Assembly (NCBI GenBank): GCA_016181145.1
Contig: JACOZW010000023.1
Span: 1 to 48,398 of the forward strand
Direction: 5' to 3'
DNA from: Candidatus Yanofskybacteria bacterium
GTDB taxonomy: Bacteria; Patescibacteriota; Minisyncoccia; 2-02-FULL-40-12; GWA2-44-9
DNA length: 48,398 nt
Part shown: positions 5,732 to 44,119 of the stretch, one piece after another
How the letters are laid out: each line of letters starts with the position of its first letter
How positions within the stretch are numbered: position 1 is the first letter of the stretch
The notes under the pieces: generated by a model
What the model was told of the DNA's origin: nothing
The model's database searches: none
The model's input: the letters and a program-made list of their open reading frames with translations, nothing else
Position numbers and translations under genes: made by a program

Positions 5732-6190
5732 TTATTTAACTTCGAGTATCTTATATTCCACTATACCTTTTGGTGTTTTTACATCTACATTATCCCCTTT
5801 CTTTTTACCAAGAAAAGCGCTTCCTAGAGGAGATTCATTTGAAATAAAACCTCTGAGCGGATCTGATTCGGCCGCCCCAACAATAACAAAATCCTGAGTG
5901 CCGTTTTTTGACTGAACTTTGACTCCTGAACCAATATCAACAGTGCTCTTGCCAGAACTTCCCTTAAAGACTTTAGCATTATCTAAAATATCTTTTATCT
6001 CTTCGATCCTGCCCTCGTTAACGGCCTGAGCCTCTTTAGCTGCATCGAAACCGGCGTTTTCTGATATATCGCCCTCCTCTTTTGCCTCTTTCAGTCTCTT
6101 GGCGATCTCGCCACGCAGTACACTAATGCGATGCTCATATTCACTCTTTAATTTTTCCAACCCTTCTGGGGTAAAGTATTGTTCATCCAT
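5732..6190 (-). CDS. greA: transcription elongation factor GreA
   Basis: 152 aa. N-terminal coiled coil with GDISENAGFDAAKE, and a C-terminal globular domain. Confidence 0.93.
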   Translation of the reverse strand: MDEQYFTPEGLEKLKSEYEHRISVLRGEIAKRLKEAKEEGDISENAGFDAAKEAQAVNEGRIEEIKDILDNAKVFKGSSGKSTVDIGSGVKVQSKNGTQDFVIVGAAESDPLRGFISNESPLGSAFLGKKKGDNVDVKTPKGIVEYKILEVK

Positions 6191-6363
6191 GTTGTTAGTA
6201 AGTTATGATGAAGTAGCTTAACACTCCTATACAAAAAGGCAAGCTTTCTTTTGTGGGTAACGGTATGAATGTAAAGTGTAAATATCAAAATGGAAAATGA
6301 CAGTTCAAGATCTTAAAATTTTATAATTTTACATTATAATTTTTAATTTTGATTTTTAAATTT

Positions 6364-26855: not shown

Positions 26856-27161
26856 CTATGGCATTCTTCTCATCTCATTCTCATAATTGGGAAAGTGACC
26901 CGCAACATCTGCAAGATTAAACTTTTTCATAATAACCTCTTTCTGCTCTTTTTCAAGTAAAAAACGGAAGGTGGCTTTTACTAATTCTGCCGGTTCAATT
27001 CTCCTAACCGTCAGCCTGGTCCAATAATCCTTATCGACATCGACAAAATATTCAATCAAACTATCTCCTTGTCCGACTTCCACAAGAAAAGTCCAGCCAT
27101 CTTCACGCTGACTGACTTCTGTTGCTCGAATACCATCAGAATCTTCATCAAACTCTGCCAT
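26856..27161 (-). CDS. hypothetical acidic 101-aa protein
   Basis: Clean ORF with no recognisable motif. Confidence 0.5.
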   Translation of the reverse strand: MAEFDEDSDGIRATEVSQREDGWTFLVEVGQGDSLIEYFVDVDKDYWTRLTVRRIEPAELVKATFRFLLEKEQKEVIMKKFNLADVAGHFPNYENEMRRMP

Positions 27162-27216
27162 AGATTTATTATAGCATAAATTAACTCAGGGATAATCTAA
27201 TTTTATCAGGATTCCT

Positions 27217-27257
27217 GAGGCGATTCCCAGAAAGTTCCTCCGGTGAACCTTCGCCTT
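27217..27257 (-). repeat. M-motif copy 1 (AAGGCGAAGGTT-hairpin-GGAATCGCCTC, minus orientation)
   Basis: The reverse complement reads AAGGCGAAGGTTCACCGGAGGAACTTTCTGGGAATCGCCTC. It matches 40552-40592 closely. Confidence 0.75.
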
Positions 27258-27368
27258 GCATCAATATGGCGACTAGATGGTCCCGAAAGGCAATAGTCCG
27301 TCGCTCATTAGCTGTTCAACGTTAAATTTCTTTTCCAGGACATAGCCCTTTCCAAAAATGAGCGAGAC

Positions 27369-27397
27369 TTGACATAGCTTACCTAATATTATACACT
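27369..27397 (+). promoter_or_regulatory. promoter of a small membrane ORF
   Basis: TTGACA (27369-27374), 17-nt spacer, TACACT. Confidence 0.4.
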
Positions 27398-27430
27398 CCA
27401 AAAACTTTGAGTTTCTGCCAGGAGAAAATC

Positions 27431-27622
27431 ATGATCAGTTCTTTGTTAAAGAGAATCAGCCTGTTAAAGCTCCTAATTATACTGGCTGCCATAAGTATTG
27501 GCCTGATAATCTATGTTTCCCTGAATTCAAATCAAGGTTTTGTGGCCTGGCTAGATTCTCCAGTTAAAATTTGGCACTTAATGGCATTCTGGGTGATTCT
27601 AAGCCCCTTCCGAAAAAAGTAA
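27431..27622 (+). CDS. small (63-aa) two-TM membrane protein
   Basis: AGGAG 7 nt before ATG 27431, two hydrophobic segments, and a terminator directly downstream. Confidence 0.5.
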   Translation: MISSLLKRISLLKLLIILAAISIGLIIYVSLNSNQGFVAWLDSPVKIWHLMAFWVILSPFRKK

Positions 27623-27625
27623 CTC

Positions 27626-27649
27626 GCCGACCCAACAGTCGGCTTTTTT
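27626..27649 (+). terminator. rho-independent terminator
   Basis: GCCGAC-CCAACA-GTCGGC followed by T6. Confidence 0.7.
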
Positions 27650-27674
27650 ATGCTTTAAAAAAGTTAAGCGAAAA

Positions 27675-28023
27675 GACTATACTCTAGGGAGAAAATAAGC
27701 ATATATCTTCTAAAAGATGAGCTTACCCAATTCATTCACAGACTACATAAAACTCTCCATCATCCGCCAACTGGCGGAGGCAGATGAGTTTTTCCTCAGA
27801 GGATTAGCCAATCTGAAGCAATTGAGACTCCGAGATAGCCCAATGATATAATATCTGGACGCTAGTCCAATCATTGGGCTATCAGAGGAGCGAACTTAGC
27901 TGAGGTCGGATAACTCATGGAGCAAGGCGAAGGTTTTAGGGACGTGCTTTAGCCGTCCCTGGAATCGCCTCGGAGTTATCCGACCGGAGGCGTGCTGAAG
28001 ATGGTTAATCCTCCGAGGAAAAA
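27675..28023. ncRNA. hairpin-dense ORF-poor region, candidate structured RNA (strand unresolved)
   Basis: A 21-position closing helix pairs 27789-27809 with 28003-28023 (19 WC, 1 GU, 1 mismatch). Nested perfect helices are 27834-27847/27870-27883 (14 bp), 27906-27916/27973-27983 (11 bp) and AGGGACG/CGTCCCT (7 bp). Confidence 0.45.
27924..27971 (+). repeat. M-motif copy 2 (same flanks, different internal hairpin)
   Basis: AAGGCGAAGGTT-TTAGGGACGTGCTTTAGCCGTCCCT-GGAATCGCCTC. Confidence 0.7.
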
Positions 28024-28024
28024 G

Positions 28025-29032
28025 TTACAATAATTTCCCTCTCCAGTGAGAATCTATGTAAGAGGCCGCTTCGCTTAACTTGAGTGAGGTGGTGCCATTG
28101 CCGGTACGGATAAAAAAGTCTTCATTCTCTTCAGTCCTTAGATAAGCCGGCCTATCGGCAGGAAGAACATTTACCAGACAAAAATCTTTGCCGTCTTTTT
28201 TTTGCAAAGATAGATCAACAAACTGCCTGAATTCTGGTCCGATCATAGAATGGAAAATGTTGGTAAAATGATTTTGGAAACCATCGGCATTCGATTTAGG
28301 CAGTGACCTGTAATCATTCTCCAGGCCGACAACTTGGCCCGAATCATCAACGCCAATAGCTAAGCGTCCGCCCGCAGAATTAAGAAACGCTGCAATTGTC
28401 TTCATTACCGCCCGCTCCAAACTCTTATTAACTTTATTTAGTTTCATATCCCAACGCAGAGAAGTTTTAAACTCAAGACGCTCATGCTCGCCTCCGCTTA
28501 ACAAACCATTGAATGTATCAGCTGATATTTTATCTGCGTGGGCCACGAGTCCGCCCTTGAGCTGAACTATAAGCTCAGCATACCTCTGTGGTTCTGGAAT
28601 GTGATCCAGAGAAAACTTAGAGTCGCTTTCCTTAAGGTCGATGGTTCCGTATTTAGTAAGTCTGCCTAAGGGACCTTGGCGATAATCAACGGAGTGGATG
28701 AATTTCAGAGGAATTACTGTCTTTTTTCTGAAAATAATACCGCGACCATAAACAATTTTGTCCGGCCGGAACTCGAAATATTCTTTATACCACTGAAAGA
28801 ATATATAAAAAACTAAGCCGGTTTCCAGAATAAAAAGTCCTGCCGCCTCAACTATATGAAAAGATAGAGAACTAGATAACGGCAAGTGCTCATATATTTC
28901 ACCGTAATCAGCCAGAACCGAGGCTAAGAAAAAAACGGCTACTGCCGTCAACTGGAGCACAATAAAGGTCTTAACAATAACAACAGGGCTTTTTTTGACC
29001 ACGAGTTGATTGGTGAAGCCAAATCTATCCAT
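28025..29032 (-). CDS. membrane protein with a bacterial PH (bPH_2) domain and a C-terminal AlbA_2/Schlafen-like domain
   Basis: YRQGPLGRLTKYGTIDL (bPH_2-like). EHERLEFKTSL and AAFLNSAGGRLAIGVDDSGQVVGL (AlbA_2 signature). The start is probably Met 29032; the track start 29068 lies inside the repeat element. Confidence 0.7.
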   Translation of the reverse strand: MDRFGFTNQLVVKKSPVVIVKTFIVLQLTAVAVFFLASVLADYGEIYEHLPLSSSLSFHIVEAAGLFILETGLVFYIFFQWYKEYFEFRPDKIVYGRGIIFRKKTVIPLKFIHSVDYRQGPLGRLTKYGTIDLKESDSKFSLDHIPEPQRYAELIVQLKGGLVAHADKISADTFNGLLSGGEHERLEFKTSLRWDMKLNKVNKSLERAVMKTIAAFLNSAGGRLAIGVDDSGQVVGLENDYRSLPKSNADGFQNHFTNIFHSMIGPEFRQFVDLSLQKKDGKDFCLVNVLPADRPAYLRTEENEDFFIRTGNGTTSLKLSEAASYIDSHWRGKLL

Positions 29033-29143
29033 CCCGTTAGAGATAGTGCTCGCACTCACTATCACCATATGGTGATAGAAATGGTTACATTACCTTAACT
29101 TATAATCTTCCATATTGTCCCGCTAGGGTATCTCTAACGGGAT
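29031..29143. repeat. 113-bp element with 15-bp terminal inverted repeats ATCCCGTTAGAGATA / TATCTCTAACGGGAT
   Basis: It shares the outer 11 nt of its termini with the element at 22488-22560. An inner palindrome CACTATCACCATATGGTGATAG is present. The left terminus overlaps the start codon of the AlbA_2 gene. Confidence 0.8.
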
Positions 29144-37078: not shown

Positions 37079-37114
37079 AGTTTCTATATTATACCATATA
37101 AAATATAATCAGTA

Positions 37115-40470: not shown

Positions 40471-40700
40471 TTAATTTTTTCCGTGCCATTTTTGAAATCA
40501 TTGCGAGAGGTATAGCAACAAACAAGGCTTTATAAACCGACAGGAAAGTTCAAGGCGAAGGTTCACTGGAGGAACTTCCAGGGAATCGCCTCCGAAACTG
40601 ACTGAACGATAGTGAAGGAATTTCGGATGGTGTTCCGGAGGTTTTAAAGCCATTGTTTGTCTAGACCAAAGCACCGATTGAAAAAATGGGGAGGAAAAAA

Positions 40701-43880: not shown

Positions 43881-43905
43881 GTTTTTAAATAATAAATCTT
43901 ACCTT

Positions 43906-44119
43906 AGTCGACTATCATATACCCTAGGGAGGAAATAATAAGAATGAGCTTACCCAATTCATTTACAGAACGTTTCGGAAGCCGACTGGGCTGAGAGAGA
44001 GCAAAAACTCAGCAGAGTTTTATGCGATCTGTAAATGAGTTGGGTAAGCGAATTTATGCGATCTGTAAATGAGTTGGGTAAGCGAATTAACTCCGAGTCT
44101 GGGTATATGATAGTCGGCT
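43906..44119. mobile_element. 214-bp MITE-like element with 19-bp terminal inverted repeats
   Basis: AGTCGACTATCATATACCC (43906-43924) pairs with GGGTATATGATAGTCGGCT (44101-44119), with 18 of 19 positions complementary. The flanking TA/TA is compatible with a TA target duplication. No ORF longer than 16 codons. Confidence 0.5.
44020..44087. repeat. perfect 2 x 34-nt tandem duplication inside the MITE-like element
   Basis: TTATGCGATCTGTAAATGAGTTGGGTAAGCGAAT occurs twice, head to tail. Each copy is complementary to 43948-43971. Confidence 0.9.

Follow-up and report, generated by a model that had tools for sequence, protein, structure and literature searches.

Two kinds of described counterpart stand close to the element analyzed here. 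Excerpts of a review on prokaryotic MITEs (transposable elements of miniature size that carry inverted repeats) describe promoters on Correia elements, cleavage of Correia hairpins by RNase III, action of ERIC at the 3′ ends of genes and nesting of pneumococcal repeats in one another (PMC10969869). The second kind is the single-strand origin (sso), characterized in excerpts of another article as an orientation-specific folded single-stranded DNA (ssDNA) that serves as a promoter for the host RNA polymerase and yields primer RNA (PMC4595007). Here we describe family B, a foldback repeat in a window of 48,398 nucleotides (positions 1–48,398 of contig JACOZW010000023.1, assembly GCA_016181145.1) from a Candidatus Yanofskybacteria bacterium. 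Its copy in the window lies at 27789–28023 on the plus strand (covariance model R1, 176 bits, E = 1.5e-52), directly behind the stop codon of a minus-strand AlbA_2 gene. We consider it probable, by a fair but not a commanding measure, that B is a new mobile foldback repeat of the Correia/ERIC kind, with a strand-specific three-way junction, conserved junction bases and a predicted promoter.

An earlier note on this DNA, made from the letters alone, had taken 27675–28023 for one multi-helix, RNA-like region of about 350 nt. When searched against the genome that the window comes from (68 contigs, 951,685 bases, 92% complete), the region instead splits into a stack of three unrelated repeat families, termed A, B and C: a fragment of A, followed by B with C nested inside it. 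The helices described in the note hold. The longest open reading frames (ORFs) in the region are 44 aa (27717–27851, plus) and 43 aa (27743–27874, minus), as its coding limit implied; the closing helix pairs 27789–27810 with 28002–28023 (22 nt, 91% complementary); and the perfect 14-bp helix (27834–27847/27870–27883), the 7-bp helix (27938–27944/27954–27960) and the TCCGCC-AACT-GGCGGA hairpin (27762–27778) are all present. A helix given as 11 bp does exist, its true length being 13 perfect pairs (27904–27916/27973–27985). The stop codon of the minus-strand AlbA_2 ORF is at 28025–28027, 1 nt away from the closing helix. The undefined ‘M motif’ of the note is probably the ~50-nt repeat at 27923–27972, which forms the tip of one arm and recurs elsewhere in the genome. 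Folding of 27640–28030 gave −159.9 kcal/mol (z = −9.66) for the plus strand and −156.1 kcal/mol (z = −9.75) for the minus strand, with 0 of 100 shuffles as good in either case. Rfam 15 produced no match to the window at the gathering score and, with E up to 10, only chance-level hits (E > 5) in 27400–28200; uninterrupted B copies did not match any Rfam family either.

The consensus fold of B, derived from seven own-genome copies, comprises a closing stem P1 (27789–27810/28002–28023 in the window), a tandem G.A internal loop (27815–27816/27997–27998), the 4-bp stem P1b (27817–27820/27993–27996) and a three-way junction from which two arms, the long P2 and P3, emerge. Around the junction, J1/2 (ATTGAGA, 27821–27827) leads into P2 (27828–27890), and J2/3 (27891–27898) leads into P3a (27899–27901/27989–27991) and P3 (27904–27916/27973–27985). 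Copies are typically ~165–185 nt long, reaching 235 nt in the window copy with its nested C. The junction bases TTGAGAC, GCGAAnnTAGCnGAGG and CCGGAGGCGTG are near-invariant across five genera. The arms are variable, being short hairpins in some copies and long and module-bearing in others, and they tolerate or acquire additional hairpin modules. P1 has complementary ends in every copy, with its inner 6–10 bp falling into subtypes and its outer part differing between copies. Outside this genome the 5′ boundary reads (T)AAGCGAR and the 3′ boundary NGAGCGA, and similarity between copies ends there. Paired with each other, these boundary motifs can give two G-C pairs and another tandem G.A motif; in this genome they are often replaced by a Watson–Crick extension of P1.

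The helices of B covary. In an alignment of 45 matches, standard pairs fill 96.3% of 1949 pair cells, compared to 34–46% with slid partners; bases change on both sides in 48 of 56 pairs, and none of 500 shuffles attained such figures. The alignment is fitted to the model and its copies are related, so that these figures overstate independence, although the slid-partner control retains the relatedness. Three of its rows, two of them duplicate partial ones and the third a spurious 32-nt match, were dropped from later counts. The fold is strand specific as well. G.U and U.G wobbles occur in 103 cells, compared to 18 A.C or C.A cells that would wobble on the opposite strand. An alignment-free comparison of the modeled strand with its reverse complement finds the former more stable in 40 of 41 copies, with a mean advantage of 11 kcal/mol, and in 32 of 33 when own-genome copies are set aside. 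Because of this wobble asymmetry and stability difference, the folded strand is assigned to the plus strand of the window, antisense to AlbA_2. These data show that B is constrained to fold on one strand; covarying helices together with an invariant junction across genera imply that something reads this folded single strand. The earlier note had allowed for a mere pile of MITE fragments with helices that do not covary: the pile is real, in the form of the A/B/C stack, but the helices of B do covary, and the main part of the region is a conserved, strand-specific plus-strand fold.

The strand assignment bears directly on a minus-strand reading, in which the region is a structured 3′ untranslated region of AlbA_2, as that note had suggested, or a terminator of this gene. 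The fold does begin 1 nt past the AlbA_2 stop codon and the minus strand also folds strongly (z of −9.75, as above). On that strand, however, the wobbles turn into A.C mismatches (the 103 versus 18 cells), stability is lower in all but one of the 41 copies, and neither strand has a T-run after the stem. AlbA_2 orthologues (61–68% identity) are present in all six congeneric genomes examined and none has B alongside; the genes on the 3′ side of B are diverse, and AlbA_2 is that neighbor in only 1 of 41 copies, so the constant company of AlbA_2-type genes contemplated earlier is not seen. We therefore regard a role in AlbA_2 mRNA as highly improbable, and B was likewise rejected as a cis element of AlbA_2 genes on the counts of orthologues and neighbors.

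To map B, BLASTN was combined with a covariance model that had been built from the seven own-genome copies and trimmed by 10 nt at each end. The 0.95-Mb genome contains ten matches (seven full, one partial, one mini and one weak). Of 36 other genomes in the same GTDB family, the model found 11 to carry B, with 33 further copies in all, spread over five genera at one to eight copies per genome; 24 genomes of three sister families had none. An exact 19-mer scan of 185,579 species genomes returned 17 loci, four of which fit the model, all of them in metagenome-assembled genomes of Candidatus Yanofskybacteria; the other 13, from high-GC taxa, fail the model and were discarded as chance matches, as were both loci from a scan of viral contigs. 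Among the genomes searched, family B was thus found only in Candidatus Yanofskybacteria. Literature on Patescibacteria noncoding RNA and on intergenic repeats of the candidate phyla radiation (CPR) yielded no description of the family in titles or abstracts, and B is an undescribed family without an Rfam match. One 84-nt mini form (C9:16180–16263) keeps the closing stem and junction motifs and has lost both arms; its 3′ arm overlaps the final 25 nt of a DNA polymerase X-family gene. On contig C33, a tRNA gene (6180–6251, 65 bits) lies ~30 nt off the 5′ end of the B copy.

This combination of a rigid core and a patchy distribution has to be weighed against a reading in which B copies are paralogous structured functional RNAs (small regulatory RNAs, ribozyme-like or protein-binding) made from the plus strand and spread by gene duplication, their 3′-end position serving insulation or antisense control. 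Junction bases that stay invariant across five genera while the helices covary, the strong strand asymmetry, and the purine-rich junctions, tandem G.A motifs and variable arm lengths found in many natural RNAs would all suit such a family. Its occurrence in just 11 of the 36 other family genomes, however, marks B as dispensable; copies sit at non-orthologous sites in congeners, and some are truncated or interrupted. No conserved promoter precedes the copies, whose mutual similarity begins at TAAGCG just before P1, intrinsic terminators lie directly upstream of two of them, and the lack of an Rfam match also counts against this reading. Overall, we find a functional RNA family an unlikely explanation, if the most serious of the alternatives.

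The preferred reading, a mobile repeat, draws on presence and absence at orthologous sites. The B copies at the AlbA_2, dnaJ and ftsQ sites are present only in this genome, each of the three orthologous sites being free of B in all six congeners. For 29 of 36 B copies, the nearest relative resides in the same genome; identity averages 0.77 among copies that share a genome and 0.62 among copies from different genomes. On contig C40 a B fragment is split by an A-like sequence, and truncated B copies occur on C4 and C2. B is therefore multicopy, present or absent at orthologous sites and clustered by genome, with nested and truncated copies. As such, it would behave like a non-autonomous mobile element of the Correia/ERIC type, and it may move or act through a folded single-stranded intermediate, ssDNA or RNA, rather than through protein-bound duplex ends.

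Several points weigh against this reading. The near-invariant junction across genera, at a distance where proteins within one genus are 40–79% identical, looks more like a functional RNA than a selfish repeat in decay, and the outer stem varies between copies, unlike the conserved terminal inverted repeats (TIRs) of classical elements. No consistent direct repeat that could represent a target-site duplication was found at any B boundary examined. Searches of the 92%-complete genome found no Y1_Tnp (PF01797), RVT_1, TnpB, DDE_Tnp_1, IS110, resolvase or Nop, which is absence of evidence only, and searches of seven genomes of the genus for Y2_Tnp, Rep_trans and Rep_1, two of the three run without a positive control, were also empty. 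The single rve ORF is located in unrelated single-copy DNA, and the sole tyrosine recombinase is Xer-type, scoring 138 bits against the 265-bit integron-integrase cut-off. A promoter directed antisense into essential genes, as predicted for most copies (see below), is hard to rationalize. Lastly, B copies are related and counts across them are not independent, which makes the k-of-n figures here and below descriptions rather than tests.

The placement of B is uneven between its two sides (neighboring ORFs were called mechanically). A convergent long ORF ends with its stop codon no more than 23 nt past the 3′ end of the model in 20 of 42 copies, and in one more the stop codon overlaps that end by 6 nt; the distance is 4–14 nt in 16 of these 21. 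Given that the model is trimmed by 10 nt per end, the full stem of B often touches the stop codon. An ORF boundary is equally near on the 5′ side in only 5 of 41 copies. The 3′-side neighbor is convergent in 29 of 41 copies and belongs to a Pfam family in 37 of 41, mostly with housekeeping functions such as DnaJ, FtsQ, MurJ, RNase Y, RNase J, PNPase, RpoC, DnaK, FtsZ and ribosomal proteins S2, S6 and S16. RelA/SpoT is the 3′-side neighbor three times and AlbA_2 once; the three RelA/SpoT cases, each with B on the stop-codon side, come from three genomes of three genera (contig C4 here and two relatives). On the 5′ side, by comparison, 25 of 41 neighbors belong to no Pfam family, and 19 of those 25 ORFs are on the same strand as B, although some of them are probably not genes. 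Owing to this difference between 3′ and 5′ neighbors, B tends to sit where a conserved gene gives way to variable DNA. A mobilization protein shared among the 5′-side ORFs was considered and dropped, as all-against-all BLASTP of the 41 gave no family.

Two sites illustrate this arrangement. The ftsQ–murB junction, contiguous in three congeners, holds B, a 270-codon membrane gene lacking known identity and an A fragment in this genome. On contig C18 (13315–15061), two B copies of opposite orientation, with their 3′ ends outward, surround two unknown genes. The pair encloses 1.4 kb between convergent conserved genes, encoding a 182-aa membrane protein and a 137-aa basic protein and including an A-like fragment, a layout that resembles a composite element. 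Other foldbacks occupy comparable positions in relatives: congeners G003, G006 and G001 have unrelated foldbacks with 14–19-bp outer stems 0–6 nt past the stop codons of their AlbA_2, dnaJ and ftsQ orthologues, and one such family (core ...CAGGTACCCTCGCTTGCCTC...GCGCTCGACC...) is common to G001 and G006. In the window's own genome, a tandem double hairpin, CCGCCAGAGGCGG-GT-CCGCCTTTGGCGG, and its variants occur at at least six sites (C4:2804, C6:3082, C13:13868, C15:2399, C20:28518 and C30:1896), at least one of them inside a RelA/SpoT reading frame.

The P2 arm of the window copy contains TGATATAAT (27844–27852, plus), an extended −10 consensus in which TGAT is paired and ATAAT lies in a 5′ bulge; a −35-like TTGAGA (27822–27827, plus) precedes it with a 19-nt spacer. 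Of 42 copies, 29, namely all those with a long P2, have TA[TAC]AAT on the P2 5′ strand, as exact TATAAT in 26, and 24 of these 29 have TG two bases upstream of the hexamer. The pair table shows a conserved T and G and, between this TG and the hexamer, a base that changes along with the one it pairs to; the hexamer's first T forms an invariant pair. Such conservation and pairing is as expected of TGnTATAAT. The 11-mer TGNTATAAT[AG]T occurs 20 times in the genome, six times in B and 14 times elsewhere; on our own estimate from base composition, ~10 occurrences of the 11-mer would be expected by chance. About 8–10 of the 14 copies outside B have an ORF of at least 96 codons starting 3–76 nt downstream, and since so many are just upstream of ORF starts, the 11-mer is likely to be a working −10 element of this organism. 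TGnTATAAT with an ATG 6–11 nt past the hexamer was seen at C17:25469, C23:9462, C48:13237 and C51:37096 (minus strand, position 37096 of the window), which suggests that leaderless or near-leaderless mRNAs may be common here.

Single-sequence folds place this motif in a consistent structural setting. Across the 29 copies, TGn is paired in 28 and T(−12) in 24, and every base from A(−11) to T(−7) is free of pairing in 27 with RNA parameters or 25 with DNA parameters, and the pattern is the same in three P2 architectures. Melting of sigma-70 promoters starts at −11; with TGnT paired and ATAAT unpaired, the duplex of P2 ends where promoter melting would begin. As duplex DNA, the predicted promoter points to the 3′ end of B, where a gene in the same direction lies 11–260 nt away in 12 of 41 copies; in the other 29 of 41 it is antisense towards the convergent gene. 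Long-arm forms of B may thus carry a working TGnTATAAT promoter that would fire towards the 3′ end of the element. A transcript from it would lack the 5′ arms of P1 and P2, and their covariation must then serve another molecule, either a full-length RNA or ssDNA.

These features raise a further explanation, in which B is a single-strand-specific docking site for RNA polymerase, either a folded ssDNA like Frpo and sso or an RNA like 6S, that presents a pre-opened promoter and primes complementary-strand synthesis, drives early expression of transferred cassettes or sequesters polymerase. P2 would then be the upstream fork junction (TGnT duplex, ATAAT unpaired) and the three-way junction its scaffold, with the plus strand being incoming, excised, replicating or RNA. 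The duplex end at −12/−11 in three P2 architectures would fit, as would a fold specific to strand and orientation with three stems, as in the sso of pBAA1 and ICEBs1. Orientation-specific folded ssDNA read as a promoter by host RNA polymerase is also how sso is defined in the excerpted source (PMC4595007). Moreover, priming on the folded strand would copy the 19 of 25 Pfam-less 5′-side ORFs that lie on the strand of B. Set against this, no Rep, relaxase-type or Y2 gene was found in the searches above, two of three lacking a positive control, and the 13 of 42 short-arm copies retain the junction without the hexamer. The −35-like TTGAGA is unpaired and spaced at 19 nt, the three P2 architectures share ancestry and are not independent, and AT-rich stretches tend to be unpaired anyway. 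Rfam 6S is found in 0 of 37 genomes of the order, a result that offers no guidance on a replacement of 6S by B. Taken together, a docking site seems to us quite doubtful, more so than a functional RNA family and less so than a part of the AlbA_2 transcript, and a mobile foldback repeat stays the preferred reading of B.

The window copy of B forms the right part of a lineage-specific inserted block of 863 bases (27162–28024) that separates the stop codon of AlbA_2 from the start of the following gene on the minus strand (26856–27161). The block is absent from the same site in six of six congeneric genomes. There, the spacer between AlbA_2 and the next gene is 9–12 nt in two congeners and 45 nt in one, and the other three have different foldbacks with long outer stems beginning 0–6 nt past the stop codon. 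Short genome repeats make up this block as a mosaic, with a single unique small ORF among them, and the best reading of the region is that small foldback repeats have piled up in an intergenic insertion hot spot behind a stop codon. Metagenome contigs from four DNA runs of one study were also inspected; none spans the whole block, and no empty-site allele was seen among them. Their depth is 200–286 at the B core compared to ~5 in the flanks. The AlbA_2 neighbor itself (28025–29068, minus), which combines bPH_2 with SLFN_AlbA_2 (E = 2.8e-18), lies outside the element. A perfect 12-nt inverted repeat, AAGTTAAGCGAA/TTCGCTTAACTT, at 27661–27672/28070–28081 brackets the region, its right arm falling in the conserved KLSEA codons of AlbA_2. 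With 48 occurrences in the genome against 36 expected, the boundary 8-mer TAAGCGAA shows no over-representation, and for this reason the 12-nt repeat is probably due to chance.

Within the window's B copy, the family C module occupies 27923–27972 (plus) at the tip of P3, and this is the only B copy in which it is nested. The six other full-length own-genome copies have no C, the equivalents of 27922 and 27972 being directly joined, and metagenome contigs connect 27921 to 27972/27973, skipping C. In the module, the basal stem AGGCGA/TCGCCT and the loop are conserved, a bulge of 3 nt follows the basal stem, and the upper stem covaries, with compensatory changes in six other copies detected by BLAST; it occurs alone, within B and, as a variant, in an A copy. 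Own-genome searches also identified three short repeats at the left of the block (27182–27216, 27215–27262 and 27260–27306). The second of these (27215–27262, minus) is a C-like hairpin module in reversed orientation, with the same basal stem AGGCGA/TCGCCT and a different upper hairpin. BLASTN found copies of it at C16:14880–14925 and C51:40551–40592, the latter being another C-like module in the window (40551–40592), and metagenome depth over it is 55–87 compared to ~5 in the flanks. The left end of the block had been considered as a degenerate inverted B copy; this was dropped, as MAFFT alignment supports a C-like module only.

Family A is a ~190-nt foldback, of which the window region retains the 5′ half (27666–27745, plus; leader and 5′ arm) in alignment with six other copies, the 3′ arm being missing here. 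Five of the six others are full length (two on C17, one each on C14 and C33, and C51:43900–44069) and one is cut by the end of contig C40; the copy at 43900–44069 of the window has both hairpin arms and a shortened leader. Between the A fragment and B, an imperfect local hairpin (27749–27792, plus; 76% complementary) surrounds the TCCGCC-AACT-GGCGGA core. Hairpins of the form CCGCC-loop-GGCGG number 71 in the genome, including the one at 27762–27778. To the left of A is the unique ORF of the block (27431–27622, plus, within a unit at 27369–27650, also delimited as 27407–27650), encoding a small membrane protein of 63 aa (63–71 codons). It is preceded by a promoter-like site (TTGACA-17-TACACT, 27369–27397, plus), followed by a strong intrinsic terminator (27626–27643 plus a T-run, plus strand) and antisense to the flanking genes. 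Neither a second copy in the genome (tblastn) nor a Pfam family was found for it.

Patescibacteria have tiny, tightly packed genomes with few recognizable mobile-element genes, and we know of no gene-cassette mobility or establishment machinery in this phylum. The genus nonetheless carries several foldback families whose members insert immediately after stop codons, unknown genes arriving along with them, and B is the best constrained of these. Finding its reader, be it a polymerase, a nuclease or a recombinase, would show how accessory DNA moves here and how insertions rewire transcription at the 3′ ends of essential genes. If the single-strand promoter were real, a multicopy chromosomal repeat in ultra-small CPR bacteria would work like a plasmid sso or Frpo, priming or expressing the accessory DNA on its 5′ side, and could be a signal for cassette mobility or establishment. 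For annotation, the region is a warning that very stable multi-helix ‘RNA-like’ stretches in CPR genomes can be stacks of nested repeats.

Several known systems were compared with B and set aside. REP and BIME are extragenic palindromes clustered behind genes, often between convergent genes. REPs are ~35 nt long, with a conserved tetranucleotide and dependence on a Y1 HUH enzyme (the REP/RAYT system), whereas B is five times larger, at 165–235 nt, and branched, and the genome has no Y1_Tnp (PF01797) match. 6S RNA is ~180 nt long, with a long closing stem, and mimics an open promoter; unlike it, B has a three-way junction instead of a central bubble and is mobile, multicopy and patchy, and RF00013 matched neither the window nor any of the 37 genomes of the order. 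The R-box consensus of integron attC sites is RYYYAAC/GTTRRRY; the (T)AAGCGAR/NGAGCGA ends of B are not R boxes, and the only tyrosine recombinase is the Xer-type one. TIGR-Tas/Nop and an L7Ae k-turn binder were considered and are unsupported, with no Nop or L7Ae match in the genome. The junction is, by eye, unlike the hammerhead core, and the Rfam models of hammerhead and other self-cleaving cores did not match.

Masai and Arai reportedly described, in 1997, Frpo of plasmid F as a single-stranded DNA promoter. With ssoA, ssoT, ssoU, sso1 of ICEBs1 and Frpo, B shares an orientation- and strand-specific multi-stem-loop fold (~150–300 nt, to judge from excerpted sources) that carries promoter elements, although polymerase recognition is known for those systems and predicted from sequence for B. 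B differs from them in lacking sequence similarity, in having no Rep or relaxase found near it, and in its up to nine chromosomal copies beside housekeeping genes, instead of one on a plasmid or an integrative and conjugative element (ICE). B also resembles Correia of Neisseria and ERIC/IRU of enterobacteria and Yersinia, as far as the excerpted sources go. It is likewise noncoding, multicopy, dispersed and intergenic (Correia and ERIC measure 100–200 bp), folds into long hairpins and varies in copy number between relatives. It shares a sigma-70-type promoter sequence with Correia and a position at gene 3′ ends with ERIC, which affects mRNA fate, and, as for the pneumococcal repeats in the MITE review excerpts, its elements are inserted into one another (PMC10969869). 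No target-site duplication or cognate transposase was found for B, and its closing-stem sequence differs between copies where classical TIRs are conserved. What sets B apart from Correia and ERIC is its three-way junction with conserved unpaired bases, covariation in every helix, and a strand-specific fold within which the −10 hexamer is unpaired.

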